NCBI GenBank assembly: GCA_032718475.1
Contig: JAUCBJ010003552.1
Location: 1-55,281, forward strand
Source: Nemertoderma westbladi
Lineage: Eukaryota > Animalia > Xenacoelomorpha
Reading direction: 5' to 3'
DNA length: 55,281 nt
The notes under the pieces: model-generated
Told to the model about the DNA's origin: nothing
Database searches by the model: none
What the model saw: only the letters and a program-made list of their open reading frames with translations
In this document: in pieces, positions 4,957-47,288 of the stretch
Layout of the letters: every line of letters begins with the position of its first letter
Position numbering within the stretch: position 1 is the first letter of the stretch
Made by a program: the position numbers and the translations under genes

Positions 4957-5795
4957 TATATAGCAATGTCAATTGATAATATTGAATTTTAGCAGATGAT
5001 TTTACAAAATTTTTAGCGGTAGACAGGGGAACTTCAGCCTACTCTATGTCTCCGCAAAAGATATGGCCTATGCCGTAGTAGATGCCTACCGAGTTTAAAC
5101 CTATTCGGAATGAAAATAGCGTTAGAGAAGATGTTAATTTTCAGATCATACGCCCTCTAGCGGCAGACTATGGAACTGCAGACGGCTGGATATAGGTATG
5201 AGTAATTAGTAATCAGAGCTGTCACGGGGTGGGGCGGGGCGCTTGGATACAACTATTATTAATAAGCTGTTGCTTGTTTAAAGCTAATTGGGGGTCAAAG
5301 GTCAAAGGTCAACGATAAAGCTGTCTGGATATAGATAAGAGTAATTAGTTACCAGTAAGGGAGCTGTATACCCTATGGCTAAGTATGGCTAAGAAATCAA
5401 TGTATAAAGTAAAATAAAATACAAATAATTAATTAAATTAAATTGAATATAAATAAACCGCGGTGTCACTTATGACACCCTTTGCTCCTCTCGGTGACAG
5501 TTGGACCCAACTGATGACCCATTGTGTGTCAGGGCGCTAATCAGTCTGATTAATTAGGATAATCAATTAAACCCTAATTAGAAGTCATAAGACACCTATT
5601 AGGGTTTAATTGTACTAATTAATTGATGCCACCTATCAATTAGGGTCTAATTAGCCTAATTGGGAGGTGTCACCCAGACAATCTGGCGCCAATGACACCC
5701 AATGACACCCATAGGGTGATAATTGGGTGTCATATGACACCCAATGGGTGTCAGTTGGGTCCAAGTGTCACCGAGCCGTGCAAACCCCTACTACT

Positions 5796-8652
5796 GTCAC
5801 CCACACTTGGTTAAACATGCCCTCTATATCGCATGTGAAGGTGTGTTTCCCACTTCTAAACCTTAACAGAACCTCTACCCCCGAGTTGTAGATATTCGGG
5901 CCTTCCAGTAGGTAATCGTTTAGGCTCTTGCCATTCGTCTTGGCAGAAGCGTCGACCACCATCCTTAACTTGCCCGTCTTAGGGTCTAGGGCCACATGAA
6001 GTGGTAAATAGTCCTGTTGGTGTTTGGCTCGTCCACCGGTAGCTCCACAGCCCATCCTCGATCCACGTACTTCTTGATGGTCTTATGGATGTAGTCGTTG
6101 TTTTCAGGGCTCCATCTAAGCATTTGCTTTAATTTTCGAAGCCTGGTCATGACCATCCTCTTGTTGTCTGGTAGGGGCACCTTCGGTTCCTTACATACCA
6201 TCCCTGTGGTATATCGCCCCCCTTCACACTTCATCAACTTCCTGACGCTCTCCTGCGCCTGCTTGTCCTCCACCGAGGTTCCACCCCGGTCTCCTTTAAC
6301 CCTTCGAAGTCCTGCCATAGCAGCCTCTTGAGTTGCTCCTCTGCTCCTTCGTCCTTCAATTCCCTCATTGTTCCCGCGAACATGCACTTTGAGGATTCGG
6401 ACACGCTAAACGGGATCCTCATCTTTATTGGACCACTAGGTGTCCATGGTGTCAGGATGGCCACTGGATCTCGCTGTCGGTCATTGCCGAAAACAGTCTG
6501 TAGCCTCTTATGGGCCATTGGTCAATCCATGCTGACAATAATAGAAACCTTCGGAAGGTCCAGTTCAGGCGCGGAGAAGTCAATGTGGTCCAGGTACCAA
6601 TATTGTTCAATCTCGATCTTTGTAGGTCGCCTGGCGTTGATGTTGACTCTATGATCTCTATGTTCCATAGTCGCATCCTGATGATATTGCTGCTATCTCG
6701 CATCATCCCATCCTCATCGTCATGAACTCATCCTTGCTGGATATCATGGTCACCGCCATCTTACTTGGCTTCGTCTTTATTCCTATCTTTTCGGCCACCC
6801 ATGTCTTCGTTAATGTGAATGCTGCTCCACTATCGACTAGCATCAGTGTCGTTACTGATAGCCCGTCTTCTCCTATTATTCTCACTGATACCACTCCGAG
6901 TAGCACTGTTCCCTTCCTCCTAATTCCCATGGTGCTCGTCGCCATTGTCTGGCCTCCAGTCCCATCAGTCTCGGCATATTTGTTCGGTGGTTCCTGGCAT
7001 TCGTCCTTTCTGTGTCCTCCTACTGCGCATCGATGACATAGTCAATTTTTACCGGTGTAGGCTATTCGATCTTGCGTAAGCAACGCCTGCCAATGTTTAC
7101 AGTTTATGGTCTTATGTGTGCCGAACCTATGCAATTGGCATTTGTACTCAGGATTGTAGCATTCCTTATATAGCGCTTCACGTATTACGCTTAGATTCAT
7201 ATCTAGCGGTTTAGTGTTTTGGTTAATTGGACTCGGCCTACAGGGGGTATTAGGTTTGTATCTGTTCGTGTTGTTACTTTGTTTCTGTCCCTACCACGGT
7301 GTGGCTTTACTCCCAGCTCCCTGCGGACTTGTAGTCCCCTGTGTGGCCACATACGGTAGCGACTGCCTCACCTTAGGAAATGCGTTCGCCGCACTATGTT
7401 CGGGTTTAGGTCAGCTGTTTCCTTCTTTGGTACCTTGCCTAGACTGTCCTCACTATAGACTGGATCCGTTATTAACTCTGCCTCATAGTTAAGGAAGTTC
7501 GACATCACCTCCAACCCTGGCTCCGCACCTTTCTTCTCTCGAGTGAAGAAAGCAATCTTTCTCCATTTGTTTCTTAGCCAAATCGGTAGTGCCTGCGCTA
7601 TCGTGGTGATGTTGTTCGATGCATTGAGTTCGTAAGGTGCATCCAGAGTCTTTAAGACTATTAGCACCTTTTCTACTTTGTTAGCGAAAGTCTTGATGCT
7701 AACAGGGTTATCTACAAGTCCACCTTTATTCCGCCGTTATTCCCCTTAAGGTTTGTCATATAATCTTCGCAGGATGGCCAAATTCCCTGTACAGGGCTCT
7801 CCACGCGGTTGTGAATCCTCTTTCAATACCTTGGTATTGCCTCACGAGGTCGTAGGCTGGCCCCCCTGTAAAGACTTGTAGATATTTAAGGCACTCCGCC
7901 TGTGTAAGATATTTTGTCAAAATCTCGTTGATGTACATCCTCCGGAACTGTAGATATTCTTCCGGCTTGCTACCATTATACTTAAAAGGCTCCATGGGTG
8001 GCAGCTCAATTCTAGTTTTCAGTTGCCAGTGTTGCCATTCCCATCACTTGAACTTCCAACGCGCTCGACGGTAGGGATGCAGGCTCCCTCGTTGTTAGCT
8101 GTGTTTCGCCTCTCGGGTTCGTCGACTTTTCCTGAGCGGGATATATCATCGGGGGTTGCGGTCCCCTCCATATCTCTGTGTCACACAATCTATTTGGATC
8201 TGAGGGGGTCGGGTTTTTCAATTTTGGTTGTGTGTATTGCGGATACAGTAATGGCGGAATGTCACCCTGCCCCCCCCCCCCCCCCCCACCCCACCCCCAC
8301 CGATGTTATAAGTGTATGTATTGTATCCCTGCATATTATAGTCATACTGGTGTGCAGGTACTGGTATAGGCCTATCAGGTTCCTGCCTACTCACCGGTAT
8401 GTATGCCACGACCTCAGTGTCCAATCCTGGTATTTGCGCTACCCTATCGCCTACACTATCTCTCCCAGCATGGCCTATAGTATGTGCAGGAAGACCTACA
8501 GTATGTCCTGCAGACTGCCTGTGTCCCTCCGGATCGAAGTTTAATCTTCTCGAATATTCCGAGAACTCCACCCCGCGACTACCATATCGTCGATCGGCAG
8601 CTACGTTCCGACGGGAAATTTCCCTCTGATCCCTTCCTCCATGGGGCTTCTG

Positions 8653-14232: not shown

Positions 14233-14601
14233 GTAGTGACCTTTCAGACGTGTCTTAGAGATAAGTCAAATACACCGAGAGTTGGATGAGGTGATATTTT
14301 TTTTTTATGAGGCTAACTAATCATTATACAAGATTGAAAATGTCCCAATGGGATATTTCCTGGGTTACCAAATCTCCTTTCTAACACCTTTCATTGTTTA
14401 ACCTTCTCAACATGTATTTGTACATCATGTTGCCGTTGTGCATAAGAACTATGTAATTGTGACTGATTTTAATGCCATTGATTCTTCTCTGCCATATTGG
14501 GTCTTTCTAGGTCCACTATCCATTCTCCTATGATGGGGTATCTAATTGTGCCAGCTCCTGAACCATGAGCTATGGTTACTATATATATCCATTGCTCTGC
14601 A

Positions 14602-15826
14602 TGTAAAAGCCTTTGCGGAATTGCCCCGTTATTTTTATTATCTTTTACATTAAAATACTCTGTAGTTGATTTAATAAGTGTAAGAGACCGTATTATTGCT
14701 GTATCGGTGTTTTTAGAGGATCTAAGACCTATTTCCTCCGTATGTGTACTGTGAAAGGCATATTTTATGATTCTATGGCAATTCGTGACGCAAAGGGGTG
14801 ATAGCTACTCTTGAACAGTAGTTACTATGACTACGGTTAACAGCTGACATTCATACGTGTTGATTTCCTTTGTTCTACGGCGTCTCTCAGTTCAGTCAGC
14901 CAATTAGAGCGTTTTTGTGGCTCCTTGTACAGAAAATTTCCGAGAAATGACGCAATGCCTATGTGCAGTGTTTACATTCAGTCCTGAGCCAAAGAAAGAA
15001 CGGCTTGGAAGTATTTTGTGCTTTACAGTTTTTAGTCTTACACTAGTAGGTTTAATTATAAAGGGCATATATCCTTTAACTACCTAAAGACTCTGATGAC
15101 TGATCATACATGCTGACTGCTGAAACATTGCAAACTCATAACAATCAGTGTTTTCATTGTTGTTTTATACTGCTATTTACCGTCAGTTCTTCATAATATG
15201 GTTGATGAATTATTATATTTGGAATAACGAACCCCGAAACCCAATATTCTTGATTTACCGAAGGTAAGAGAGAAAGGTTACCAATAACGATTGTGACTTA
15301 TGTTAAAGTGGTTTGAAGTGAATCTAATGTTATTTGATAGACCCTACATGAGTCAGCCTGTGTTCCTTTTATATGTGACTAAAATCAGTGAGGATTGGCA
15401 GATTAGTGTGCAGTATTGTGCAGCATTGTGTATGAGTGAGTCTGTTAAAGAAGCAATTCCTAAAGAATGCGCCATATATGTGAATTATAATTAAGCCATA
15501 TCGTTGTGAGTAGTTTAAGTCATAACTCTGTTTATATAGATAAAGCGCCACGTCCTAAAGGAACTGTTAATATTCCCGAAGGTAAATAATATTGTCAGAG
15601 ATTATATAATACTGTCAGTCGAATAATACATTAGGCTTACATAGCAACAAAATTAAACCGTCGAACCCAATCTCCCGGGAATATCCAGCGGGTGAATGGT
15701 CGCGCACGGATTGGTTTCGACTAGTGTAGTGAATCAAATACTTGTCATAGACTAAAAACCGATTTAATATCTAGAAGACATCTTAATTTGGTGGGTTAAA
15801 CTGCCAAAGGTCTGAAAGCGCGAACA
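14602..15826 (+). repeat. 5' LTR
   Basis: TGTAAAAG...GCGAACA; matches 25765-26989 except at 14617, 15255 and 15534 by eye. Contains CCAAT, two TGACGCAA and an Inr-like TCAGT near 14979. Confidence 0.97.
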
Positions 15827-15847
15827 TTAAAGGATATAGCTTCTTTG
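15827..15847 (+). promoter_or_regulatory. Non-canonical primer-binding site complementary to the element's own LTR
   Basis: TTAAAGGATATA (15827-15838) lacks the TGG of a tRNA PBS and is the exact reverse complement of TATATCCTTTAA at 15068-15079 and 26231-26242. Confidence 0.6.
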
Positions 15848-16074
15848 TTGCAGTAAGCAATAAAGTTGAAAGTACCGGTCAACCGGTACATCTGTAGGTC
15901 AGTAGGCCCAACTGCCAGAACCGGTACCAGTAGGCCTGACTACCTAACCACTCGGACCGGTACCTACAGCAGTACAGGTACAGCAGTATTATTCGATTTT
16001 GATAGTTGTATACCGGTAGGTCTTAGTACTTAATCAGGGAACGGCCGCCCTGATTTTTTATTGAGATTTTACTT

Positions 16075-16710
16075 ATTTCTGTCAAGTTTTATTTATTTGT
16101 AGGCCAGTATTGAACAGAAGGCGTGTAAGCCTGATCAGATTGTACAGACGATTTGTAGGCTGAGCTGTTGTCTGATTGCTGTTAAGTCCGAACGAATTGC
16201 AGTGTGTGTAGAGCACTTGTCCGATTAAGTACGGTTAGGAAGTAGGGGCAGCCAATGCGGTAGGGTAAACCCCCAACTAAAGAATAAGTCGCACTACTGG
16301 GTTAGAGCGCATACTCCCTAATCATTTCGGAGTCTGCATGTCCTGTGGTTTATTTAGGCTTGAGAGTAGTCTGCCATCGTTTAGTCTGTACTTTGTTTGT
16401 GTAAGTCTGTACGGGTAGCGTATAATTTTATTTAAATAATTTGTAGGCTGGATAGTTGTCTGGCTGTTATTAAGTCTGAACGGATTGCCGCGTGTGTAGA
16501 TCATCTGTCCGATTAAGTACGATTAGGCAGTAGGGGCAGCGAACGCTGTAAGGTAAACCCCCAACTAAAGAATAAGTCGCACTACTGGGTTAGAGCGCAT
16601 ACTCCCTAATCATTTCGGAGTCTGCATATACCGTAGTTTGTTTAGGCTTGATAGTAGTCTGTCAGTGTTCTGTCTGTATTTTGTTTGAGTAGTTTGTACG
16701 CGTAGCGTAA
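16075..16710 (+). repeat. ~288-bp tandem duplication in the 5' leader of the BEL element
   Basis: GTAAACCCCCAACTAAAGAATAAGTCGCACTACTGGGTTAGAGCGCATACTCCCTAATCATTTCGGAGTCTGCAT occurs identically near 16265 and 16553. Confidence 0.9.
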
Positions 16711-18042
16711 TATTTATTATTCAGAGTTTATGCAATTATTCGCAACATTCAAGTCCCCAAGTTTGTTCCTACAGTAATTGTGTTTGTTATACATACCGCT
16801 ATAGTTAAATTAACCTCGGTACTACACGGGCTGCTTGGCGTAGGTAAAGACTGGTGATTTTGTGCATCGGTCACTCCAGCAGATGCCGTGGTTCTTTTAG
16901 CTGTTCAAGTATATTTAATTACTGATTATCTGTTGTACAAGTACTCGTACCTAATTTAGGGTTTAGTGTACAGTGCTTTCCGAGAATAATTAGTGTAGGC
17001 ATTATATTTGTGTTGTAAAGTGGTTGATAGGCACATTCGATTAGCTCTATTAACTTCTAGGTAGGAACACTCCGTGATACATAACGTAGAACCTATAGCG
17101 ATACGGCTATAGGTCGTCAGGCGGTGGTATTTTCCTATCTAGACAACGCAGTGTATTTACTACTACTTATTATTTCAAATACCGTAATACCCCGTCCGCT
17201 GTAATAATCAGTTTTCTAACCCTTTGTTAGGCTGGTTTGTAGACTTCTTGTAAAATTACCCTAAAAATTCGTATTTTGTGTTTTTTGTAAATTTTTGTGT
17301 TTATTTAGAGATTGTAATCTCAACCCGAATTGTACGTAATTTGTAGTATAAGTAACTTAGGTAAATTAGTAATATTTGTTTTAGTGTCCTATAAGTAACA
17401 CTTCACTGAAAGCGCACCGCTTTGTGTAGTGATTACTCCCCAGAAATAATAATATTTATTTCAAACATTGACAAAACCCATTAAAACGGGTATATATATA
17501 TTATAAATCAAATCTAACGATTTATAAATAGTAGGCCTACCATACAACCATTAGGTCCCAATATCAGTTGGATTACTGCTCAAATAACGGTAATAAAGTA
17601 AGTAAAGTAACAAAGTAACCCTAAAGTAACAGAAATTCAATTATTTGAAATAATTGATATACCGGTATTTACGATAGGCCTATTATCTTTATTTCTATAA
17701 ATCTAGGCTGAAATTATACCGGTACTTGTAATTAATTCTATTTCAGAATTATATATCCTACAAACTGTAAGCTGTATACCGGTATTCCGATAGGCCTATT
17801 ATATATTTATATATATTTGTGCTAAAATTATACCGGTATTCTGTGATAAACCTAGTCTGTAATAATACTTATATAGTTATATATACTATAAGTATACCGG
17901 TATTCTAATATATTATATATATATCACGCTACACTGAGTAGCAGTAACGGTAATTAATTACTAGGCTAGCAGTTCATACTGAGTTACTAGACTTGCTTAG
18001 ACTGTAATATAGCAGTAGGCATTCAACTGTACATACCTAGTC

Positions 18043-21000
18043 ATGTCTGATACTAAGCAGAACCTGTCAGACAGTTTATTAGATGTAACTATCTGCGACT
18101 CAGATAGAGACGTACAACCGTCTGGTCGTAAATCCAGTTCACCTCCCACTGTGAGGAAGGTCATCCCTCCAGTAGTAATAACAGAACCTAGGCTGGTCCA
18201 ACATCGTAGGTCTATCATAGGCACTCGAGCTCAGGTCAAGCGGGACCAAAAGGCAGCGGAACAGCAACAACCCACTAGTCAAGAACTTATTCCTCAGCGG
18301 CCCAGCAGCTCCAGTAGTGAGGATACTGTAGAGCTGACACCCGAGAGCGGAGCAGAGATGACGGATGCGGTTTATACGGATCCCCTTCTCATCCTTCCTG
18401 CAGCCGTGCTCGCTGGGTTATTGATCGCGGTGGAAGAACACCAGATCGATTGGGCGAGAAGTCAACGGTCAACTAGAGATAACTACGCGGGATACACTAG
18501 TGAAGAACTGAAGTCTATTGTCGAGTCGCAATGGAACTTCCCCGGACCCGGACTCCCGTTTGATTTATCAGAAGCTGCCTGGGAAGACATACACCGGATG
18601 GGAGTAGCCAAGGAAACCATCGATCCAGCTGTATGGAAGAGGTCCGCAGCCGGATACGCACAGGGATTCTTCAGCTCTATGGAGCGAATAGAAAAGCAAC
18701 TTTTTCAACAACCTCAAGGACCTCAAGAGCAGGGATCGCTGCTTTATCAAGTTAGAGAAAGAGTTCTGCGGATTAGGCTAATCTTATCCGCCTTTGAGGA
18801 GGCTTCTAAAAGAAGACAAGACACGTCGTTGCAAGTTGCCGTGAAGACTTGGTTTCAACGGGTGAGTCGCCAGGTTCAAGGAGCAGCTCAGTGGAAAGCT
18901 CAGTTGGAGGAGCGCTCAACCCATGGAGAATCAACAGACGCTACTTTTTCCCAAGTGGAAAGTGAAGCGACGGCAGAGAAACCACATAAGAAGGATGCCA
19001 TTGATATCTATCTGTCAGACTATCAGCGTTTTGTGGGAGATGAAGAGTTGAGGAGAAGGCTAGAGGGACTTAGCCCTAATAGCGAAGGAGCCAAACTTGT
19101 GTTAGATGCGATTGATGTGGATAGGTTAGCGGCGAACCAAGCTAAATTCGATGAACAACTCCGCATCGTTAGAGAACAAGAAGAACAAGTAAAGAAAAAA
19201 CGTATAGAAGACAGAAAGGCCGCAGCAAAAGCAGAGGCAGAGGCAAAAGCGGCAGCAGCAGAAGCAGCGGCAGAGGCAAAAGCAGCAGAAGCAGCGGCAG
19301 AGGTAAAAGCGGCAGCGGCAGAGGCAAAAGCGGCAGCAGCAGAAGCAGAACGGAAAGCGGCTGAAGAGATCGCCCAACTGGAGTTGGAAACGCTTCAAGA
19401 GAAGCAAGACGACTTCAGTAAACAGTTAACAGCTAGTAATATGCGGATGATGAATCGATCTACTCCCAAAAGACAGGGATATACATCATCTGAAGAAGGC
19501 GATACCACCGATACTGAGGGCAAAGGAAATAGATCTCGTCTAAGCAGACACAAAAGAACATTCCACCGGCAGAAATTGCCTGATTTGCCTCCAGCTGTTA
19601 GAAGGCAACTAAATAACACCAAAGTAGGTAGTACAGAGCCCGCAGACCAAATAATTAAAATAGAAAGACTCCCTACGATAGTAGATGAGCCTGAAATAAT
19701 TAGGCCTGTTCTTGAAATCACCCCTTCGGTGATAGACGCACATGTGCTCCCTGAAACTACCTCTAAATTCCCTCTGCATAGCACTAAGCTACCTGTGCCC
19801 CGCAGAACTGCCCAAGAGACAGTTCAGGTCCTGGACCCCGAGCGAAATATTCACAATTTGTCGCCCGTTGTCCCTCGTCCGCCCGCTACAACGTTGGCGA
19901 CTCCCGCTTCGGCGGTCGAATGGGTGGACGAGAGACGGCGGGGGATGGATATCCTGCTCGGACAGATGCAGGAGACTGTCCAGCAGTTCAAGGGCACAGT
20001 AAGGGAAAGTAGGCTAGAGTTGCAAGAAGTGCAGCAAAGTATCGCGCTAGAGCGCGATAAATTAGTAAACACACAAAAGGGTATACCACCACCCTCTGTA
20101 ACAATGTGTCAACCTGTTAGTTCTGAAGTATTGCATGCGCAAGGTGTGGAGCCTACACGCATATACACTGCTAGCGAAGTAGAAACTCCTATAGTGAACC
20201 CTCTAAAGGGTAATTATAGACCTGTTGATAATGATATTCCCTATAGAACTGATCATAATCCGAGAAATTTATATACTGATAACTCGATATTAAATAGCAC
20301 GATGGCCCAAGAAAGTTTTACGCGTCAAATGGCTAGAACCGAAGCCCGACAAGCGGTAAAGGTTGGAGAGATCGTCAAGTTTAATGGAGATGAGATGAAA
20401 TGGTTACCTTTTAATGAATATTACAAAGATAACATACAGAACTCTGTACTATCTAATGGAGAAAAACTTAGATACCTCATCGAGTGCTTGGAAGGATCTC
20501 CCAAGTTAATGGCATTAAAGTTTATTGGACATCCAGACGGATTAAGACAAGTTTGGGATACACTAAACATCAGGTATGGTAATAGGAATAATATCGCTGG
20601 GTACTTGTATGCCAAGTTAGTAGCGCCCCGAAAGTTTATTAGTAGCGGAATTATCGAGTTTTCCGATGAGATCCAGGAGATCTGCAGACAATTAGATTGG
20701 CTAGGTAAGTCTCATGAGTATCAGAACACTATGGTTATTAGAGCAGTGGCTTCTACTTTACCGAAAGGTGGAGTAGGTACACGCTGGGATAAGAAAGTGT
20801 TATATATGATGGAACAACAACGGCGAGACCCTACCATGGCTGATCTCATGTCATTCCTAGATGGAGAAGTGAAATTACAGCTCCTGAAACAGTCTAGGGA
20901 GAAAACACCGGAAAACAAGGTAAGTGAAAAACCCGTCTCTAGGAGAAAAATAACACCAGTATGTTATACCGACGACGGTGAAAGCCAAACTTCTCAAGGA

Positions 21001-22950
21001 GGGGACAGCGGGAAAGACACTGACAGATCTTATGTCAATAAAATGCCTAAAGATCAGGTAAGTAAATCCAAGTCTCGACCCAATGACAGAAGGGAACCGG
21101 TACAAAAAACCCCTCCTACGTCTCCTAAAGGAATTCAGGTGAGAAAGCCCGAGGAAAGAACAAGTGTGCACCACATAGCACAGGTTAAAGTAAGTAACAT
21201 CAAGCCGAAATGTGTGCTGTGCGACGGGCCCCACCGTTTAAATGCGTGTGATAAATTCCTGAGGAAATCACTCGAGGATAGACGTGAAGTCATGTGGGAT
21301 AAGCGGTTGTGTTATAATTGCCTCAGACGAGGACACCAACGGCGAACCTGTAACTCCGACGCAAGGTGTGCAAAGTGCGGCGCAAATCATCATATCTTGT
21401 TGCACACGGAATTCGAACGAAACAGCCCGAGTCAGGTAAGTGAGTCCGAACTACATGTCCAATTCAGTGATGTGAACGACACTGATCAATCTGAGATGGA
21501 AGGATTCTATACGGACGAGTTCTCCGACCAAAACGAATCCTGTTACCTAATAAACACCACCGCAGTGTATCGAACACTCGTGTATGAGAAAGACACAGAC
21601 AGCGACCTTACCTTAACTACTTCCGATCAACAACCATCTTGGAAAGCGCCAACTTCCAATATAGGAATCCGAGAATTTCCTGTAGTCCAGTTACGGGTCC
21701 ACGGACCTCAGAAGAGCTATATAGTGAACGCCCTCCTGGACTCCGGTAGCACAGGAACATTCATCGATAGGGAACTAGCCGAAGTCATCTTTGCTGGACA
21801 ACCCAAGTTCCAAACCAAGCTAAACCTGTCAGGGATCATGCAGGTTTGGAATTCTACTGTAGCTGCCGACTATTATATATGTGAGTTGTCCACCCCCCAG
21901 GACGAACTAGGAGAACATAGCATCAGGTCAGTGAAAATGGTGGCTATAAAGAACTTCGCTACTACTCAAGCAGACCTTTATAATTGGGACGAGGATGAGA
22001 GCATCCAACATCTTAACATACCTCGATTCCAGACTGATTATCCTGGAGTGCAAATACTCATCGGCCAAAACGCGCATGAGGCGCTGGAGACATTAGAGAA
22101 ACGACCTGCTCAACCGCAACCACTTCAGCCCTATGCGGTAAGAACTAGAGTAGGTTGGTACCTTACTGGACCTTCCCGTAGAACGCTCAGAGAAAGACTG
22201 CTTCAAGATTGCGTCTGCCAGCGGAGTAAATGGGAAGATGATACTAGTGAGGGAGACGACCCAACTGAGGGAACACCATACTCCTCAGATAATGACGATA
22301 TTAGCTCCAATTTAGATCAATGGAGATATTGTCCCAAGAAGTTTAATCCAACGGACATCGCTTCCAGAGGAGTAACTCCTCAAGAACTGACAGATACTAC
22401 AGACCGGTTAGGTGAACCCGACTTCCTGAGTAAGGAGGATGAATGGCCTCCCCATCTTACTCCGACTGAGATTAGACCAGCCAAGGGAGCGGAGAAAGTT
22501 AAACCTAAAACCCGGGCGGGTGGATCGGAGTTATTTGAACCCGGGATAGATCTGTCGGTATTACATGTTGCCAGGGACGACGCCGTGGATCTGGGCCTCC
22601 CCTCCGCGAGTGGATCCTTCATGAAGATCAGAGAGAGCGATTGGAGCTCTGGAACATCAGACGTCTCGCAGGGACTCTCACCTCTCCTGCAGAGAGCGAC
22701 GGACCACTATAGCTCCTGGAATCGGCTTTGTGACGCCGTCATATACTTTGAGCGATGTTTCTATCGTCACTATTCCAGGACGAAGAGGAAACCTGGAATT
22801 GTATTCAGGATGCAGCAACTCAATCACCCAGTCGGTCGTTTGTGTTTATCGGAAGGGAATGGAGGACTCTCCGGAAACTGTGGAAGGCAAGATTCTCTTC
22901 CCACGACCACCTCCCTAATCCTTCAAACATCTAGGGACTCCATAACGTAG
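18043..22950 (+). CDS. BEL/Pao Gag-protease polyprotein with RT and integrase core deleted in frame (1635 aa)
   Basis: BEL Gag core (IVKFNGDEMKWLPF..KLRYLIECLEG), three Cys/His knuckles (CVLCDGPHRLNAC, CYNCLRRGHQRRTC, CAKCGANHHILLH), protease ALLDSGS, PYAVRTRVGWYLTGP, then directly the RNase H tail WRYCPKKFNPTDIASRG, YSSWNRL and the terminal HPVGRLCL. No YVDD or DDE motifs. Confidence 0.93.
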   Translation: MSDTKQNLSDSLLDVTICDSDRDVQPSGRKSSSPPTVRKVIPPVVITEPRLVQHRRSIIGTRAQVKRDQKAAEQQQPTSQELIPQRPSSSSSEDTVELTPESGAEMTDAVYTDPLLILPAAVLAGLLIAVEEHQIDWARSQRSTRDNYAGYTSEELKSIVESQWNFPGPGLPFDLSEAAWEDIHRMGVAKETIDPAVWKRSAAGYAQGFFSSMERIEKQLFQQPQGPQEQGSLLYQVRERVLRIRLILSAFEEASKRRQDTSLQVAVKTWFQRVSRQVQGAAQWKAQLEERSTHGESTDATFSQVESEATAEKPHKKDAIDIYLSDYQRFVGDEELRRRLEGLSPNSEGAKLVLDAIDVDRLAANQAKFDEQLRIVREQEEQVKKKRIEDRKAAAKAEAEAKAAAAEAAAEAKAAEAAAEVKAAAAEAKAAAAEAERKAAEEIAQLELETLQEKQDDFSKQLTASNMRMMNRSTPKRQGYTSSEEGDTTDTEGKGNRSRLSRHKRTFHRQKLPDLPPAVRRQLNNTKVGSTEPADQIIKIERLPTIVDEPEIIRPVLEITPSVIDAHVLPETTSKFPLHSTKLPVPRRTAQETVQVLDPERNIHNLSPVVPRPPATTLATPASAVEWVDERRRGMDILLGQMQETVQQFKGTVRESRLELQEVQQSIALERDKLVNTQKGIPPPSVTMCQPVSSEVLHAQGVEPTRIYTASEVETPIVNPLKGNYRPVDNDIPYRTDHNPRNLYTDNSILNSTMAQESFTRQMARTEARQAVKVGEIVKFNGDEMKWLPFNEYYKDNIQNSVLSNGEKLRYLIECLEGSPKLMALKFIGHPDGLRQVWDTLNIRYGNRNNIAGYLYAKLVAPRKFISSGIIEFSDEIQEICRQLDWLGKSHEYQNTMVIRAVASTLPKGGVGTRWDKKVLYMMEQQRRDPTMADLMSFLDGEVKLQLLKQSREKTPENKVSEKPVSRRKITPVCYTDDGESQTSQGGDSGKDTDRSYVNKMPKDQVSKSKSRPNDRREPVQKTPPTSPKGIQVRKPEERTSVHHIAQVKVSNIKPKCVLCDGPHRLNACDKFLRKSLEDRREVMWDKRLCYNCLRRGHQRRTCNSDARCAKCGANHHILLHTEFERNSPSQVSESELHVQFSDVNDTDQSEMEGFYTDEFSDQNESCYLINTTAVYRTLVYEKDTDSDLTLTTSDQQPSWKAPTSNIGIREFPVVQLRVHGPQKSYIVNALLDSGSTGTFIDRELAEVIFAGQPKFQTKLNLSGIMQVWNSTVAADYYICELSTPQDELGEHSIRSVKMVAIKNFATTQADLYNWDEDESIQHLNIPRFQTDYPGVQILIGQNAHEALETLEKRPAQPQPLQPYAVRTRVGWYLTGPSRRTLRERLLQDCVCQRSKWEDDTSEGDDPTEGTPYSSDNDDISSNLDQWRYCPKKFNPTDIASRGVTPQELTDTTDRLGEPDFLSKEDEWPPHLTPTEIRPAKGAEKVKPKTRAGGSELFEPGIDLSVLHVARDDAVDLGLPSASGSFMKIRESDWSSGTSDVSQGLSPLLQRATDHYSSWNRLCDAVIYFERCFYRHYSRTKRKPGIVFRMQQLNHPVGRLCLSEGNGGLSGNCGRQDSLPTTTSLILQTSRDSIT

Positions 22951-25764
22951 CAACATATGGAGTGGGTGTGTGACTCTATTATTTTATATTATTTTATTAT
23001 TTTTATATTTATGTATGTATTACTATGTAATTCTATTATAATCGTTTTCTTTAATTTTATTCAGTAGAATGTTATTTTAGCGATTATTTAGTAGATTAGT
23101 GCAATATATATTCGCGTTTATTACTTAATTACGTATATATTATATTTAATGCGACGGCAAGAAATAATTCTTTTCCTTCTTCCTTACTGTCCGTATTACA
23201 TTACAAATACGTAACTACAGTAAGATGAAATGTCCGTACTTATTAAAGTACAATAAAGCCACTACTATATTCAAGTATTATTGGTAGGCAGAGTATTAGG
23301 AATGCAAAGTTCAGATCCTCGTGTCTCGGCTAAACCAAGCTCTGGGTAGACCTTGGAAACGACTTGCCTCTTCACACTGACATTGCTTCGTGCGATATTG
23401 CTCTCATACCGTATATTAAATAATACATATAGTAGCGTGATGTCCCTTTAACAGTAGCGTATAACGCAAAATAAATCTGTTAAACCCTTTGACCATCTGT
23501 AATTCTAGTCGATTAAGATATCGCGGCACCCACCGATATACTTGAAAGACAAATTCTAGAATCAGTGGTTAACGTCCCCAGACAAGTTCTGGAATAAATC
23601 GGTGCCCATCTCAAATATTAATTAATTAATATTTGCAAAATCTAATAAATCAAAATCTGTAAAATTCAGATCCTTCAATAATTCTAGTCAATTAAGATAT
23701 CGTAGTATTTACCGATATTCTTAAAAAGACAATTGTCATAGAATTAAGGATCTTGTGTCCCCAGACATGTTCTGGAATCCAAATATGTCCATTTAATTAT
23801 CAAATAATAAAATTTCAGGGAATCAATTTAAATTCATGCCTTTTAATGAATTTAATAAATTGCCATTTTTACGCAATTTATAAAGTTCCCAAAATTCCAT
23901 TAATTAATAGATCAAGGGAGCGGAGATTTATCTTAGCATGCGTATGAGTGTGTGAAAGTCTCCCAAACATAGTCAATAGCCGATAAAATTCATAAAGTCA
24001 TGTATAAAACAGAACATTGACTATTAAAGAATTACTATTAAATAACATCCCAGATCTGTATGCATTGGAATCACCCTAATTCTACCGCTAGCTTTGCATA
24101 ATGTCACCATAGCAACAACCACGCTAGAATTAGAATTGAGTTAAAAGAACAATAGAAAGCTTGTCCCATTGAATAGCATAGGGAATAAATAGTGCACTGA
24201 TAGTATCCAAGGATACATAATAATACAGTGACATTCTGGAAGGCATTGACTAACGGACAAGTGACCCGAGTTTGTGTAATTTGTGACAAGTTGTGTGTGT
24301 GGTATTTGTGAGTTTATAGGTGAATGTTACTGCTAAGGTGTGTTTACAGTAGCTAGTCGCAATCGTAGAAGTAACCTAACTCTCCAAGGAAACCTGAAGT
24401 ACATCTAAGCCTTTGGGACGGACAGTTGAGTGACTTGTGCCGGTGGTCGTTGTCGTTGTGCGGCTACGTCGTTGGCGAAAGTACAGCGGCGACGACACAT
24501 CGGCGCTGAGGATCTCGTACTGTCCGGGGTTGATTGGGGTAGGCAGCGACGCCCGCTCGCCTAAATATAAACTCATTATAATATGGATAAACTCATATAT
24601 AGCAGATATGACGGAGTTGATAGAAGATGGTCTTGTCATCCTATCGATTTACACAATACGGACTATGTCGACTATATATCCTGCCCAGCGGAGTCGGAAC
24701 CATAAACAGAAATTCGAATGCGAAAATTCTATTCGAAATCGACTCGAAAGAAAAGACACTTAAGAAACAAATGGACGCGGTAACTCCAACGTATATTTGG
24801 AATTCTTGATAGAAGCATTGTAACAACGAATAAATATCACCCGCGTTTACCCTACCAGACGTGCGTCTTTGGTATTATTACGATAAATGCCCTAGACCCA
24901 ACTAATAAACGGAAAGACATAAACATCCACGTAAACCGAAACTTGTTGACGTATCACCTATGCTCACTCGGCTCGAACGATCCTGGAGTAAACCTACGAT
25001 CAGAGTCCCGGAATACTCGGTCAAACCTCCTCATTCCTTAGTTGGACCTCAAACCTGCGATCTTGGTAGTGTCGCGGATCCTCGCGGACTGTATTCACTG
25101 TTCAAAGATCTAGTGCTACCCTAACAATTAATCGGTAACACTCCGACAGTGATTTCTAGCTAGCCGCCCATCTTACCTAGCCGGATTGTGACGCGGACAC
25201 CTAATATCACTATCCAACCGTATGGTCGTCCACGTTTAACGCGATACAACCCCTCATCAAAGGGAAGGAGAGCGTTGTACGAAACGAGTTAAACGCTATT
25301 TTATAAAGATCAAAAGGGAAACCTGCGTTTGTTCAGATAAACGTAAGTTATAACAGTGAGTCCAATCGATAAACGAATTGGCCTTATCTCAATTCGATTG
25401 GGAAATCCAGAATCTCTAAGAAGTTATCGAACTTGGACGATCCTATTCTCTGCGAGAGTTTTTGGATGAACGTATCCAGCTACGAGCGGAGGAAAATCAG
25501 CTCGAGGAGAAGCATATCGAAACGGCAGATACCTCGACCACAATCCTACACCTTCTGATGCAATCATATTGCACCCTTCACCCAGGAGTTATGGCCCTCC
25601 TAGTAAAGTGGCTCCCCCCAAAGAGAAAAAGACTCTTGCTAGCCTCAAAAAACTGCGTAAACGCCGTCTGCGTAAGAAAGACTAACTGTTTAGAGTATCT
25701 TTATGTTTTTAGAAACTGTGATTTTTATATTTTATAGACTGAAAATCCCATTTTCTGGGAGCGG

Positions 25765-26989
25765 TGTAAAAGCCTTTGCTGAATTGCCCCGTTATTTTTA
25801 TTATCTTTTACATTAAAATACTCTGTAGTTGATTTAATAAGTGTAAGAGACCGTATTATTGCTGTATCGGTGTTTTTAGAGGATCTAAGACCTATTTCCT
25901 CCGTATGTGTACTGTGAAAGGCATATTTTATGATTCTATGGCAATTCGTGACGCAAAGGGGTGATAGCTACTCTTGAACAGTAGTTACTATGACTACGGT
26001 TAACAGCTGACATTCATACGTGTTGATTTCCTTTGTTCTACGGCGTCTCTCAGTTCAGTCAGCCAATTAGAGCGTTTTTGTGGCTCCTTGTACAGAAAAT
26101 TTCCGAGAAATGACGCAATGCCTATGTGCAGTGTTTACATTCAGTCCTGAGCCAAAGAAAGAACGGCTTGGAAGTATTTTGTGCTTTACAGTTTTTAGTC
26201 TTACACTAGTAGGTTTAATTATAAAGGGCATATATCCTTTAACTACCTAAAGACTCTGATGACTGATCATACATGCTGACTGCTGAAACATTGCAAACTC
26301 ATAACAATCAGTGTTTTCATTGTTGTTTTATACTGCTATTTACCGTCAGTTCTTCATAATATGGTTGATGAATTATTATATTTGGAATAACGAACCCCGA
26401 AACCCAATATTCTTGATATACCGAAGGTAAGAGAGAAAGGTTACCAATAACGATTGTGACTTATGTTAAAGTGGTTTGAAGTGAATCTAATGTTATTTGA
26501 TAGACCCTACATGAGTCAGCCTGTGTTCCTTTTATATGTGACTAAAATCAGTGAGGATTGGCAGATTAGTGTGCAGTATTGTGCAGCATTGTGTATGAGT
26601 GAGTCTGTTAAAGAAGCAATTCCTAAAGAATGCGCCATATATGTGAATTATAATTAAGCCATATCGTTGTGAGTAGTTTAAGTCATAACTCTGTTTGTAT
26701 AGATAAAGCGCCACGTCCTAAAGGAACTGTTAATATTCCCGAAGGTAAATAATATTGTCAGAGATTATATAATACTGTCAGTCGAATAATACATTAGGCT
26801 TACATAGCAACAAAATTAAACCGTCGAACCCAATCTCCCGGGAATATCCAGCGGGTGAATGGTCGCGCACGGATTGGTTTCGACTAGTGTAGTGAATCAA
26901 ATACTTGTCATAGACTAAAAACCGATTTAATATCTAGAAGACATCTTAATTTGGTGGGTTAAACTGCCAAAGGTCTGAAAGCGCGAACA
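25765..26989 (+). repeat. 3' LTR
   Basis: Copy of 14602-15826, followed by TSD CTGCA. Confidence 0.97.
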
Positions 26990-27098
26990 CTGCACTTGGT
27001 TTCAATTTTGTTGTTCGGTGTAATTTCCTCGTTGATTCTTATATGTTAGGTTTCTACAATATCGTTGTATCATTCCTAATAGGTTTGTTGATTTATCA

Positions 27099-28219
27099 TA
27101 CGGAACCCATTCTGATTTCCACGTAGCAGTCTCTCAATGGGATCCCTGATGCGATTTAATAGAATTCTATTGTATAGAACATTTGTGTCTACTGTTGACG
27201 GTGACACAGAACCATTTGAAATGTTATGGGGCGTCCTCCAGGGAGACACACTTGCACCATTCTTGTTCATAATTGTTGTTGACTATGTTCTACGCATGTC
27301 CTTAGATCATCATAATGATGATGGGGTGATGATAACTCCACCTACTGGCTCCAGAAGTCGAGGAAATCCTGCCAAGTACCTAACTGATCTAGACTTTGCT
27401 GATGACTTAGGAGTACTCTCAGAATCACTAGAGGGAGCCCAACGGCTCCTCAGCTCATTAGAACATGCTGCTTCTAGTGCTGGTCTTTTTATTAACTCCA
27501 GAAAGACCAAAATTTTGACAGTTAACTTTGAAAGTCCTCAGCAAGTCTCTGATCGGATGAGCATAATCTCAAAAGATGGTATGCTTGAGCATGTGGATGA
27601 CTTCTGTTACCTGGGATCATGGATCCGGAAGTCAGGTGAGGACCTTCGAATACGTAAGGGAAAGCCATGGGCAGCCTTGAATAGGCTTTCCAGGATTTGG
27701 AAGTCACGAAGAATTAATAGGAAACTTAAGGTCCGATTATTTAGAGCAGCAGTAGCTCCAGTACTGCTCTATGGGAGTCCATGCTGGGCTCTAACTGCTG
27801 AGGACACCAAATCTATGGATGGCACAGTCACAAGAATGCTACGCCGGGTTCATTGTGTCAAGTACAATGCACACAACCGGACACTATATAACATTGGAGG
27901 TGTCTCATTGGTTCCCCCAAGCTTGACACTAGAACAAAATCGCTTCCGCTTTGCAGGACATTGCTTTCGCCGTGAAGACCAGCCAGTGCATAATCTTGTA
28001 CTTTGGCAGCCTCATGGAGTGAATAAGCATGGTGGACAGCCCATGACTTTCTTGAGACGCATCTTAAAGGACACTGGCCTTGAAGATGCGGATGATCTAG
28101 CAAAAGTCATGGGTGATAGGGAGTTGTGGCGGTGCAATTTTGTCGATAAGCCGGCACAGCATTCTTAAAAATGCAGCTGCAATGCAGCATGCCGATCCTA
28201 GTAGTAGTAGTAGTAGTAG
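27099..28219 (+). mobile_element. 5'-truncated, 5'-inverted RTE-like LINE copy with an open RT C-terminal frame and (TAG)n tail
   Basis: GVLQGDTLAPFLF, DLDFADD, YLGSW, LLYG, FAGHCFR. 27099-27177 is inverted RT sequence (LYNRILLNRIRDPIERLLRGNQNGFR on the minus strand). Confidence 0.93.
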
Positions 28220-29421: not shown

Positions 29422-30749
29422 GGGGGGGGGTAGCACCCCCAAATTGAACCTCACATTTTTGTATCTCTGGACCATAAAATTGGGTGAAAATTATTTTTTC
29501 TGCTATTAAACAACTACTACTACTACTAGGATCGGCATGCTGCATTGCAGCTGCATTTTTAAGAATGCTGTGCCGGCTTATCGACAAAATTGCACAGCCA
29601 CAACTCCCTATCACCCATGACATTTGCTAGATCATCCGCGTCTTCAAGGCCAGTGTCCTTTAAGATGCGTCTCAAGAAAGTCATGGGCTGTCCACCATGC
29701 TTATTCACTCCATGAGGCTGCCAAAGTACAAGATTATGCACTGGCTGGTCCTCACGGCGAAAGCAATGTCCTGTAAAGCGGAGGCGATTTTGTTCTAGTG
29801 TCAAGCTTGGGTGAACCAATGAGACACCTCCAATGTTATATAGTTGTGTGCATTGTACTTGACACAATGAACCCGGCGTAGCATTCTTGTGAATGTGCCA
29901 TCCAGAGATTTGGTGTCCTCAGCAGTTAGAGCCCAGCATGGACTCCCGTACAGGAAAATATTTTTAAAATTGGCCCCAAAATGGCTCCGTAATGGCCAAA
30001 AGGCCTTTTTGCGCCAAGGGCTATTTCTCCACCAATATTTGTTGAAATTTGTCGAAATTTGGATTATAAGTTCAGAAGAACCCTGCATCCAATTCTTCTT
30101 AACAAATTTTGCCTCAAATGCTCTGGAGCCTTTTTAGAACAAAAAGGCCCCAAAAAGGGCTTTTTTGGGCCTTTTTGATATAAAAAGGCTCCAGGGCATT
30201 TCCAACCAAATTTGTTAAGAAGAAGTATGGAGAAGGGTAATCTTAACAAGTGTACCAAATTTCAACTCATTTCAGTCAAAATTGGCGGAGAAATAGCCTT
30301 TTTCATGAAAAAACGTCGTTCTGAGATATGGGTGTTTAAAGTTTAAGGAACAATTTAAACCTTCCCGCTATTTTAGATAATACCAATTTTCTATGTTCGT
30401 CAATAACTTTGTCAAAAATGAATGAAATTCAACGAAATTTTTCATGCTTGCTAAACAGATAACTAGTAAAACAACGTTTTAGCAATTTTATGCATATCTA
30501 TACCGTGAGAGCCTTTTTTATGAAAAGGGCCCCGCACAATTGTAAAATATAGTGCTGCTCGAAGGCTTTACAAAAATCAGACTAGCTCTTACGTTTTGGG
30601 TAATAACTTGAGTTTGAGAAAAGATATGAGAAAACTGCTGTGCAGATTTGAAATCTCCATTAAATTCGGCACAAGATAGAATAAAAAAAGTTTTTTGTCA
30701 ATTTCCAAAATAGGGGGGTGCTACCCCCCCCCCCCCCCCCCCCCCCCCC
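29422..30749. mobile_element. TTAA-flanked MITE with GG-starting TIRs (Kolobok-like)
   Basis: TTAA-GGGGGGGGGTAGCACCCCC ... GGGGGTGCTACCCCCC-TTAA; the Gypsy sequence resumes on either side; second copy at 47289. Confidence 0.85.
29513..29950 (-). mobile_element. 3' fragment of the RTE-like LINE nested in the MITE
   Basis: Near-identical reverse complement of about 27770-28219, including the (TAG)n tail. Confidence 0.93.
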
Positions 30750-36959: not shown

Positions 36960-38700
36960 GAAAAAATTCATATATTACTTTATCACTAGTTTTCGATATA
37001 ATATGTATATCTTTTTCGAATATTGAGCTCACGTGTAATTACTTTGTCATTCAATATGACAACGTAATTACACGTGAGATCAATATTGCGTTTTTTCTTA
37101 CTATTTCTGCCAGAATTCCTAGTTTTGGAGCTCAGAAACATAGTAAATTGGTTTCTTCTTGTTATCGTTTTTGCGTTTTTTCTGTTCTAGTGCTTGTTTT
37201 TGCGTCATAATTAGAGTCTTTCCAAATTGTTCACACATCCTGAATATTCCACCCCATAGCAACAAATGCTGATCCATATTCGATTAAAGAATTAAATAAA
37301 TCATTAAATTGTGAACTGTTTCTAACCCCACTCCATACGGAATTATATTTTAGTTGTTTTGGTTGGCGTGCAGAGCAAATGTATTGGTGAACATCTCTTG
37401 GTTTACTGTACACCTTTGTTTGAATAAAACCTCTCATCAATGTAAATTGTAAGATCTAAATAGTTAACTGTTCTACCTCTCTCTTCTAATTTAAATTTTA
37501 TTTTTCCCGGTTTAACCGCGTTTAGACGCTCAATAAAACAATTGATTTCGTCGTCAGTGTGTGATAACGTCAGTCCGATTCCATCATCCAGAAACTGTTT
37601 ATATTCATCTAAAGGTTTAGGGGCATTTATAGCTGCAGTATCTATAAATTCAGCTCCGAATAGGTCTGTGTAAGGACAAGAATACGCAGGCCCCATAGCA
37701 GCTCCACCAATTTCTGTGTAATGTGCGTTGTTGAAAATACAATTATTGCTATTCAAGTAAATCTCTAAGGCTTCGACAATGCAAGGTATAGGGGGACAGT
37801 CTGGATGTAAAATATCTTTGTGTCGTTCAAGACTTTTCCTAACTGCTTCAATTCCCATGGTGTTATCTCCTGAAGGAAAGAAATTTGTTATATCAATACA
37901 TATAAATCTCGCGTCTTCTGAAAGAGGTGCTAAGCGTGTATTAATGTTATCTAACCACTTTAAAGTGTCCCTTGTGTCTTTAAGAAATGTGGGATGTTTC
38001 CTTGCCACATCCTTAATGTAATACTCAATAAGTTTTCATAAATTTTGAGTCGCAGTGCCGCATGCTGATAAAATATTTCTTAAGGGCCAGTCCGCTTTAT
38101 GAGTCTTTATGTTAGCAAAGGCCGTTCCTGGTTTTGCATTGTCATTCAGTAACCAATTTTCGGTTTTTTGGATTATTGGTACTTCGGATTTCCATTTGTC
38201 AACAAAGTGTTTAACAAGATATAAATACCTTATCGTCGGGTCCGCTTTATGTTTTTCAAATCTCTCATCGAGACTTTGTTCTACTTTGTTAATATAATCC
38301 GTTCTAACAAATCTTTGTGAACTTTTATCTTGTATTCGTAGAATGTGTTCACAACCCGTGTGTCGTTGCCTCCTAATAGAGTTCAGTGCTTCTCATTGTA
38401 GTTTTGTGAGATTATCCGCTGTGTACTTGTTTTGTGTGAAGATTTCATTGTATACATTAACAAAAAACTGTTCTAGAACAGTATTCTTTGTTTGTTAAGT
38501 GAAGAATTTTTTACCTTTCCATGGGACAACCTGTCTTGCCGCAGTATGTTATTAATGTTCATCAAGATTAGTCGTGGCTGTATCCAAGTGTGCTTGTTGT
38601 TCTCTGGCCTGTGGGTTTTCCGTTTTCTTTAAGATTTCATAGTATTTTTTCCTCGATTTGTTTACAAAGTCGTTGTAGTCCTTATGTGATTTATATAAAA
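36960..38700 (-). mobile_element. Decayed Penelope-like retroelement (RT; GIY-YIG not seen)
   Basis: DNLTK..ALNSI..IQDK, KTHKADWPLRNI, FLKDT, CIDITNFFP, GAAMGP, QFLDDG, IKFKLE..VNYLDLTI, TKVYSKP.D.HQY; frameshifts and stops. Confidence 0.9.
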
Positions 38701-42008: not shown

Positions 42009-42790
42009 GGGCTTGCCAATAATTGTGGATTGCATGGTGTTGACAAAATGTTTTTGTTAAGCTGGCATAGCATATCAATGTACAGTTTCAATGTAGCAGA
42101 CCGATTATAGTAGTACACTCTGAATGTACTTTTCTCTACTAACCCGCACGTTAACATTCGTTTGATTATTTGGTTCCCCGAATGCTGCCTCTGTATATTC
42201 TCCTTTACAAACATGAACCTTTCTGCTACGGGACCTAATGCTCGTGGAACCTGTCGTCCCTGGTAACATATCGCGGTAGAACCTGAAGTGGCAGGTCTTG
42301 CTCCCCCATGGAATTTATTGTGACAAAATCAAATAGACAACCAAGACAACAAGTCAAGTAGAACCGAGCCTAAAATATTGAGTGATGATATTTTGTGTGA
42401 TGATGTTTAGTAATTGTAAATTTTGTCAAAATAATGACTATATTTAGTTCATAAATGATTGGATTTAGTAATAAATAATTTAATAATATTTGTAGTGATC
42501 AATTAATTTTTTGTTTGAATGATTTTAGTGATTATTTTTCGTGATTTTGGCTTTATAATTTCTGAAATCTCATTATTTTTAGTGAAAATTGTATTATTCG
42601 AAAGATAATGAAAAAAAATTGCATTAAATAAATAAGTAATAAATATATATTCAGCTCCAGCCAGATAAGAACCACGGTGTGATTGCCGACATGGCATTAG
42701 AGGCTGACTGTTAATGACGTATGGTCTATGAGACTGACCATACGTCATAGTAGGACCGGTACCTCCACCTTAAATCTTTAACTGTTTTAG

Positions 42791-45576: not shown

Positions 45577-45654
45577 CTGTTTAAACGAACAGTTTCTTCT
45601 ATTGTTTGGAAAATGTTAGAATCGCTGTGAATATTCTTAAGAATAAAGCGTGAA

Positions 45655-46652
45655 GTTAGAGTTACCTTAATATTATACAGTTAGAGTTGCCTTAATATTA
45701 TACAGTTAGAGTTACCTTAATATTATACAGTTAGAGTTACCTTAATATTATACAGTTAGAGTTACCTTAATATTATACAGTTAGAGTTACCTTAATATTA
45801 TACAGTTAGAGTTACCTTAATATTATACAGTTAGAGTTACCTTAATATTATACAGTTAGAGTTACCTTAATATTATACAGTTAGAGTTACCTTAATATTA
45901 TACAGTTAGAGTTACCTTAATATTATACAGTTAGAGTTACCTTAATATTATACAGTTAGAGTTACCTTAATATTATACAGTTAGAGTTACCTTAATATTA
46001 TACAGTTAGAGTTGCCTTAATATTATACAGTTAGAGTTACCTTAATATTATACAGTTAGAGTTACCTTAATATTATACAGTTAGAGTTACCTTAATATTA
46101 TACAGTTAGAGTTGCCTTAATATTATACAGTTAGAGTTACCTTAATATTATACAGTTAGAGTTACCTTAATATTATACAGTTAGAGTTACCTTAATATTA
46201 TACAGTTAGAGTTACCTTAATATTATACAGTTAGAGTTACCTTAATATTATACAGTTAGAGTTACCTTAATATTATACAGTTAGAGTTACCTTAATATTA
46301 TACAGTTAGAGTTACCTTAATATTATACAGTTAGAGTTGCCTTAATATTATACAGTTAGAGTTACCTTAATATTATACAGTTAGAGTTACCTTAATATTA
46401 TACAGTTAGAGTTACCTTAATATTATACAGTTAGAGTTACCTTAATATTATACAGTTAGAGTTACCTTAATATTATACAGTTAGAGTTACCTTAATATTA
46501 TACAGTTAGAGTTACCTTAATATTATACAGTTAGAGTTACCTTAATATTATACAGTTAGAGTTACCTTAATATTATACAGTTAGAGTTACCTTAATATTA
46601 TACAGTTAGAGTTACCTTAATATTATACAGTTAGAGTTACCTTAATATTATA
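45655..46652. repeat. 25-bp minisatellite (TTAGAGTTACCTTAATATTATACAG), about 40 units
   Basis: Near-perfect array; only variant seen is TTGCC for TTACC in 4 units. Confidence 0.98.
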
Positions 46653-47288
46653 CCCGGCAAATTTTGATATAATTAAAAATTGGATGCGACTTTACCCAGA
46701 TTGGCCAGATATAGCAATGACAGGACTGTGTAATTTTGAATCATTCACCCAGTTCATTTCGTTTGGGTTAGGTTACCGGTATACAAATTTATGTAGAATT
46801 TCTATGAATAAAGATATGATCCGCAAGTATTCTTATCGAGAATTTTTGGATAATATAGAATCCAAAAAAGAAGGATAGATTAGGATTGATTGTGAATTAC
46901 TTTTGAGTTTCATGCTGCTAAATTGTCCCGAATAGTAATCAAACTAACCGTAAGTGGGGCGTGCTACGTTGGGTCAGCATGTGAGAAAATGGATTCATTG
47001 GTTGCCAAGGTAAACCCACAAGCCTCCCAGTAAATAAAGGTTCATGATTGGTCACCTGATTGCGAGCTGATTTCCTCCATTTTGCTCTTCGATTTTGAAA
47101 CCAAACCTAAATAATTTAAAAGTTGGTTGAAGGTCTAACTATGTACCACAATTCACGAGTTTCACTAGTAAAAAGCTGCCTTCTCAAGTATAAATTAAGA
47201 CAGTTTACAGAGAATTACGACAAGTAGGTGCAAAGTAACATAGAAAGATACGGGAGGGGAGAGGATATACAGCATACCGGTATTTTAA

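Follow-up and report, generated by a model that had tools for sequence, protein, structure and literature searches.

How does an LTR retroelement start reverse transcription when the position of its primer binding site (PBS) carries no TGG and is the exact complement of part of its own LTR? One element in the window (by which we mean the whole 55,281-nt stretch of DNA analyzed here) raises this question for BEL/Pao, which in many animals ranks second in abundance among LTR superfamilies.

A young, non-autonomous BEL/Pao element

By sequence comparison within the window, the LTR retroelement spans 14602-26989 (12.4 kb) on the plus strand. It has two 1225-bp LTRs with TG..CA ends (5′ LTR, 14602-15826; 3′ LTR, 25765-26989; offset 11163) that differ at only three positions (14617, 15255, and 15534). 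A 5-bp target-site duplication, CTGCA, flanks the element at 14597-14601 and 26990-26994. The PBS position (15827-15838) adjoins the CA end of the 5′ LTR. It is followed by a 2.2-kb leader containing a 288-bp tandem duplication (16151-16709) and by a 1635 amino acid open reading frame (18043-22950). A polypurine tract (PPT), GGGAGCGG, adjoins the 3′ LTR at 25757-25764.

The translation and profile searches identify the open reading frame as gag-protease with a long N-terminus. It contains a Gag DUF1759 domain (20380-20763; Pfam PF03564, E 2e-11, above the cut-off), and Cys/His knuckles and a DSG protease motif can be read off the translation. The Pfam profile search gave no match to Peptidase_A17. 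Of the Pao RNase H, protein alignment identified a short C-terminal remnant at about 22306-22449 (49 amino acids, 47% identity to P0031). The HMMER protein matches of the open reading frame are BEL/Pao polyproteins (25-37% identity); among the ten matches scanned, all have DUF1759 and nine have Peptidase_A17. The TG..CA LTRs, the short target duplication, and the PPT are also structural features of the BEL/Pao lineage. A first-pass annotation of this DNA had assigned the element to BEL/Pao, and the protein evidence (DUF1759, protease, the RNase H remnant, and the polyprotein matches) bears this out. It had missed that the element is non-autonomous: profile search and protein alignment found the reverse transcriptase (RT), the integrase, and most of RNase H to be missing. 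Since RT and integrase are absent, these enzymes are needed in trans. We conclude that the element is a young, non-autonomous member of the BEL/Pao lineage. An Rfam match to RT-19 at 22451-22546 scored far below the gathering score and was rejected.

The window contains other repeats. A second, broken BEL/Pao element lies on the minus strand at 5795-8004, possibly extending to about 9300. It has pieces of gag, protease, and RT with many stops and frame changes, and ends inside RT at about 5790. No LTR was found for this remnant, and an upstream scan made blind, with no LTR as an anchor, gave complements of at most 10 nt. A LINE-type RT fragment (PF00078) occurs in two copies that are 87% alike (27102-28184 and 40707-42009). 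The first begins 110 nt after the 3′ LTR of the BEL element, and there are inverted pieces at 29510-29955. A 210 amino acid frame on the minus strand (37403-38035) has no Pfam match; by eye, it resembles a fragment of a Penelope-type RT. Tandem arrays occupy 1-2280 (60 bp), 45654-46653 (25 bp), and 48113-49829 (16 bp).

The PBS position is complementary to the LTR

The sequence at the PBS position, TTAAAGGATATA (15827-15838), is the exact reverse complement of a 12-nt site in the 5′ LTR (15068-15079), the candidate self-primer end, and of its copy in the 3′ LTR (26231-26242). The perfect complementarity described in the first-pass annotation is therefore present in the sequence. Two further features that it recorded also hold: a TGG is lacking, with none within the 30 nt that follow the 5′ LTR, and a TATAAA (15057-15062) ends 17 nt before 15079. 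The PBS 12-mer is present once in the window and its complement twice. A match of at least 12 nt arose in 16 of 20,000 dinucleotide shuffles of the LTR when offsets of 0-3 were allowed. When 9,898 internal positions were tried as mock PBSs, the true PBS alone reached 12 nt. With offsets of 0-5 and splice joints allowed, 7 of 1,000 shuffles did as well (2 of 1,000 with stricter donors), and no splice joint in the window LTR yields a match longer than the contiguous 12 nt. There are no tRNA genes in the window, and Rfam returned nothing relevant in 14500-27100.

A published screen for self-primers, as set out in the passages of PMC6317226 that describe it, looks for a complement of at least 10 nt located 0-5 nt from the LTR end. 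The window element, with 12 nt at offset 0, passes. The complementarity is a real feature; it fits a known type of mechanism, for which we found no description in this superfamily.

Predicted folding of the helix

When short pieces are co-folded alone they form a helix of 21 bp. The predicted fold in context has about 16 bp: the 12 bp, a one-base bulge, and a 4-nt extension in which 15063-15066 pairs with 15839-15842. The pairing of about 19 bp proposed in the first-pass annotation does not hold up, and an extended helix of about 19-21 bp was rejected, as a leader hairpin stacked directly behind the helix (15843-15865, probability 0.97-1.0) captures the 3′ partner. The helix has a probability of 0.94-1.0 in folds that start at 15050-15067 and of 0-0.28 in folds that start at or before 15045, and folding across a 750-nt loop is weak evidence in either direction. 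Rival hairpins are predicted on both sides of the pairing.

Position 15847 is an A in 91-100% of contig depth in four sequencing runs. This variant makes the local leader hairpin perfect too and so is no test of the long helix; it is compatible with both structures and does not discriminate between them.

Pairing partners in distant BEL/Pao relatives

Close relatives of the element were not found, either in viral contigs or in GTDB with the window open reading frame. Word-indexed protein searches gave two and one weak matches only, and a blastn search of the element against L001-L075 was empty. An autonomous, RT-bearing partner was likewise absent from the viral contig, GTDB, and protein search results. 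In a quick tree the window Gag-protease forms a long, unplaced branch (2.92; at most 27% identity).

We therefore compared distant relatives: 75 BEL/Pao loci from metagenomes (from the best 80 of 629 confirmed stretches) and eight from GTDB. Twelve families were counted, those in which the 3′ end of the LTR is fixed by comparison of two copies; loci lacking one end and duplicates were left out. For L017 the LTR end was set, after inspection of the sequence, where the two copies diverge; the BLAST-defined end gave no match. Six of the GTDB loci (L076, L077, L078, L080, L081, and L083) are BEL/Pao contigs within bacterial genome bins and are likely host contamination. One metagenome locus, L034 (1-15875), consists of three head-to-tail units of 6138 bp with common LTRs, 100% identical, and is either a tandem element or an assembled circle.

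Ten of the 12 families have an 11-15-nt complement of their own LTR 0-5 nt after it, and none of the ten has a TGG. Each of these matches was reached by at most 5 of 1,000 shuffles. The two families that fail (L024 and L037) both have uncertain LTR ends. In nine of the ten, the partner pairs only across the joint of a predicted GT(A/G)AG..YAG intron of 76-451 nt within the LTR. The exception, L075, is contiguous and has offset 0, as in the window element. That the partner is, in most relatives, assembled across an intron had escaped the first-pass annotation. Because the complement exists only across the exon joint, the pairing would be made by RNA after splicing. One PBS is common to four of the ten families, which leaves about six independent types, and swapped PBS/LTR pairs reach 11 nt only within that four-family group. 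The 11-nt PBS common to L008, L009, L011, L014, and L018 holds a palindrome, TTCGAA, that could double as a dimerization signal and that resembles the tRNA T-loop.

The families L076 and L077, whose LTRs are about 85% alike, differ in two of the last three letters of exon 1 (TAA versus CAC). The letters in which their PBSs differ are precisely those that pair with these two (TTA versus GTG); the donor is common to both, and the flanks are identical. This suggests two compensatory changes and pairing at the RNA level. L008 and L018 show one further matched pair difference. Covariation between LTR and PBS, which the first-pass annotation had named as a check, is thus seen between distant families, outside the window's own.

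We also scanned loci with at least 300 nt upstream while withholding the LTR ends. This blind scan, which includes duplicates and a few matches off the true LTR ends, found matches in 21 of 46 loci versus 53 of 920 shuffles. It added contiguous cases in L045 (15 nt), L042, and L049 (both 11 nt) as well as more joints, in L014, L048, L055, and L057; two others were located by eye (L033, 11 nt; L021, 13 nt). The contiguous L049 is sister to the intron-bearing L033 in a quick tree (SH-aLRT 99). The 5′ copy of L075 has, before the site, 144 unrelated nt that end in a pyrimidine tract and CAG; the 3′ copy does not (the copies are 88% alike, and the contig is possibly chimeric). Because of the sisterhood of L049 and L033 and the acceptor present in only one L075 copy, contiguous and intron-bearing forms appear to interconvert.

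The letters of the window element from 15075 on resemble the exon 2 starts of the relatives, and it is likely an intron-less form of the intron-bearing layout. It differs from them in that 747 nt, versus 51-250 nt in the relatives, separate the site from the LTR end and in that its PBS starts with T, whereas their helices start with G or A. L080 (1562-3204) has a 1.6-kb LTR in which an 11-nt match to the PBS arises across the joint of a predicted intron of 1022 nt; this locus was excluded from the count as its LTR end is not fixed by a second copy.

Transcription signals and variation within the family

Motif scans of the window LTR identified a TATA-like TATAAAG (15057-15063) located 11 nt before the pairing site. 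Upstream of the site there are initiator-like motifs that are candidate start sites (TCAGT motifs at 14887-14897, and others at 14978-14983 and 15032-15037), called with the Inr consensus. Downstream there is a candidate poly(A) signal, ATTAAA (15652-15657; 3′ LTR copy, 26815-26820). A poly(A)-type hexamer also occurs downstream of the site in all nine passing relatives for which these are listed, which places the site within R and not at the RNA end. Where relatives have a TATA box (L018, L075, L042, L076, and L077), it is 60-240 nt upstream of the site, and the window element departs from this spacing.

The window LTR also has strong splice-site-like motifs flanking the pairing site, donors at 15264, 15582, 14680, and 14740 and acceptors at 15028, 15035, and 15539. 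The predicted donor at 15582 lies before the candidate poly(A) signal, and splicing from it could yield a gag mRNA that lacks the PBS.

Variation within the element's own family was assessed in four public sequencing runs compared as contigs, which cannot show RNA starts or ends. The family is large and diverse in the host. It is very abundant and diverse in organism A, with 14,416 contigs in X1 over 14602-16140 of the window; X5 (labeled organism B) has a 480-nt LTR piece with six differences. Summed depth in X1 is 670,502 at 15060 versus 40,513 at 15096, and in these contigs no part of the family's LTR varies more than the stretch that directly follows 15081. X4 has a loose end after 15080, and X5 a skip of 15081-15157. 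A one-base deletion variant at 15060 accounts for a few percent of depth. Neither 12-mer contains a variant among the 40 of 138 variants listed, which does not establish conservation. One contig of X5, a run that is RNA by guess only, spans from the PPT to past 15081. None of the X5 joints listed has GT..AG ends, and given the guessed status of the run we count this as no evidence.

A putative self-priming mechanism and its alternatives

We consider it probable that the element uses some form of self-priming. The idea is supported by the LTR-PBS complementarity that recurs, with different letters, in distant families; the PBS complement always lies within 5 nt of the LTR end, where the 3′ end of a primer must sit. 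Among the possible routes we lean slightly toward one like that of Tf1, in which a 5′ fragment cleaved from the element's own RNA would serve as primer. The RNA would start upstream of the pairing site, probably between about 14890 and 15065, and 15068-15079 would pair with 15827-15838 as in the predicted fold. A cut after 15079 would then yield the primer for minus-strand DNA. By analogy with Tf1, this cut may be made by RNase H, here supplied in trans by an intact partner element. RT would copy from 15826 back to 15080 and then transfer to the corresponding stretch of the 3′ LTR. With the primer also serving as template for the next PBS, the two sites would stay matched.

This route, which the first-pass annotation had proposed, fits best, with one change: the RNA's first ~11 nt are probably not what primes. 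In relatives with a clear TATA box, it lies 60-240 nt upstream of the site, which would make the primer a capped piece longer than the 11 nt of Tf1. Several points count against a 5′ piece in the window element. A promoter reading of TATAAAG at 15057 would take the site out of the 5′ end of the RNA, and the predicted helix falls to the low probabilities given above when folds start at or before 15045. Further counterpoints are the distance of the relatives, the departures of the window element from them in spacing and in the first PBS letter, the two families that fail, and the reduction of the ten passing families to about six types.

In most relatives the partner sequence would arise only once the LTR intron is spliced. 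Both LTRs keep the intron, so the primer would come from a spliced copy and the template from an unspliced one, most simply with the 5′ copy, the one near the cap, acting as primer. The part upstream of the cut, intron included, would be copied from the 3′ LTR, and both LTRs would thereby retain an intron whose removal the primer requires. Intron-less families would arise when a 3′ LTR is occasionally spliced. We give an even chance to the broader proposal that a wide BEL/Pao branch in aquatic animals self-primes, that in most of its families the spliceosome builds the primer from two LTR exons, that only spliced RNA replicates while the unspliced 3′ LTR passes the intron on, and that the window element is an intron-less descendant that has kept the pairing.

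It is unlikely that the 3′ LTR copy of the site does the priming. If TATAAAG is the promoter, transcription would start near 15087 (assuming a distance from TATA to start of ~30 nt), and the RNA would contain only the copy at 26231-26242. The first-pass annotation, which read TATAAA as a variant poly(A) signal, missed this possible TATA box and a start after the pairing site. The 3′ copy would pair with the PBS, circularizing the RNA or bridging an RNA dimer, and be cut there, with a second RNA as the intact template. The TATA-like motif is a good one, the motif scan found no other TATA upstream of 15057 in the LTR, and the block up to 15081 is common to more contigs than its flanks, as expected for a core promoter. 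However, variability in the LTR peaks in the presumed start region just after 15081, and initiator-like motifs lie upstream. Cutting the 3′ copy would also take R off that RNA, and with the 3′ copy as spliced primer it is less easy to see why both LTRs of intron-bearing relatives keep the intron.

We regard it as quite improbable that the pairing is real but structural (for folding, dimerization, packaging, or a switch) and that priming is done by a host RNA, for example a piece of a tRNA. Competing hairpins are predicted on either side, and one PBS of the relatives holds the palindrome that is like a tRNA T-loop. Against this, at least six unrelated PBSs each match their own LTR 0-5 nt from the LTR end, which no single host RNA class fits, and there is no TGG. 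The half-tRNA geometry of copia would not fit here either.

A chance match or a relic is very unlikely. The 12-mer is AT-rich, and with many elements screened a p of 0.001-0.007 will sometimes be met. The match could also represent the two termini of a DNA transposon that is flanked by TTAA and extends from 15827 to 26242, as TTAA followed by AGG resembles Kolobok-type ends. However, both LTRs contain the site, the target duplication borders the LTRs themselves, a transposase open reading frame is lacking, TTAAAGG is not enriched in the window (13 versus 14.3 expected), and relatives have the same layout. Lastly, the first-pass suggestion that the RNA is cleaved to end at 26242 and primes from its own 3′ end, with TATAAA (ending 17 nt before the end of the site) as the poly(A) signal and a ..TTTAA end that could merge with the tail, is hardly credible, given ATTAAA downstream at 15652, AATAAA or ATTAAA downstream in 9 of the 9 passing relatives listed, an exon 2 that runs past the site in spliced relatives, a poly(A) tail that would block the paired 3′ end, and a U5 that would be 747 nt long.

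Comparison with known systems and implications

The preferred reading, self-priming from a cut 5′ piece, has its model in Tf1. According to the account of priming in PMC7175516, the PBS is bound by the first 11 bases of Tf1 RNA, and cleavage by RNase H between bases 11 and 12 gives the primer. Passages in PMC5341516, PMC6317226, PMC6934838, and PMC3601003 describe self-priming in Tf1/sushi, and it is predicted there for the Tcn1 (gypsy) and the TAR and Houba/Osr-1 (copia) lineages of plants. As these sources portray Tf1 and Tf2 of Schizosaccharomyces pombe and the Tf1/sushi group, they share with the window element the lack of a tRNA PBS and 11-12 nt after the 5′ LTR that are complementary to a site in the LTR. 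Tf1/sushi elements have Ty3/gypsy chromovirus proteins, whereas the window element has a BEL/Pao Gag and is not a member. The element shows the same sequence criterion as the predicted self-primers Tcn1, TAR, and Houba; they belong to other superfamilies, gypsy for Tcn1 and copia for TAR and Houba, and the portions of PMC6317226 that cover them do not mention a splice-built partner.

ICTV describes Belpaoviridae as having an 18-nt PBS and priming by host tRNA-Arg or tRNA-Gly, with replication poorly understood (PMC8742986). The window element resembles this family (Semotivirus) in its Gag DUF1759, protease, Pao RNase H remnant, 1.2-kb TG..CA LTRs, and PPT. It is unlike the family in that the 18-nt tRNA-Arg/Gly PBS is absent, as it is in 10 of the 12 relatives, and in that the window copy has lost RT and integrase. 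Because no TGG follows the LTR, we class the element, on sequence criteria, as a non-autonomous derivative of the BEL/Pao lineage and not as a match to the ICTV Belpaoviridae profile. By the same kind of evidence, it would work like Tf1 and belongs by its proteins to BEL/Pao.

In the literature searched, with subscription papers and Repbase notes outside its scope, BEL/Pao elements are nowhere reported to self-prime or to use a primer built by splicing, in agreement with the first-pass annotation, which knew of no such report of self-priming. A term search of the main texts of PMC3118150, PMC554778, PMC6238403, PMC8556966, and PMC12440569 found neither PBS nor priming mentioned, and the text available from PMC8220671 and PMC5443660 had general passages only.

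If self-priming in BEL/Pao is true, this would be the third superfamily with the Tf1 trick. It would account for failed PBS searches in such elements and would mean that they are freed from control by tRNA supply and tRNA fragments. If the primer is indeed made by splicing, a link absent from the literature searched, retrotransposition in these families would be tied directly to host RNA processing.
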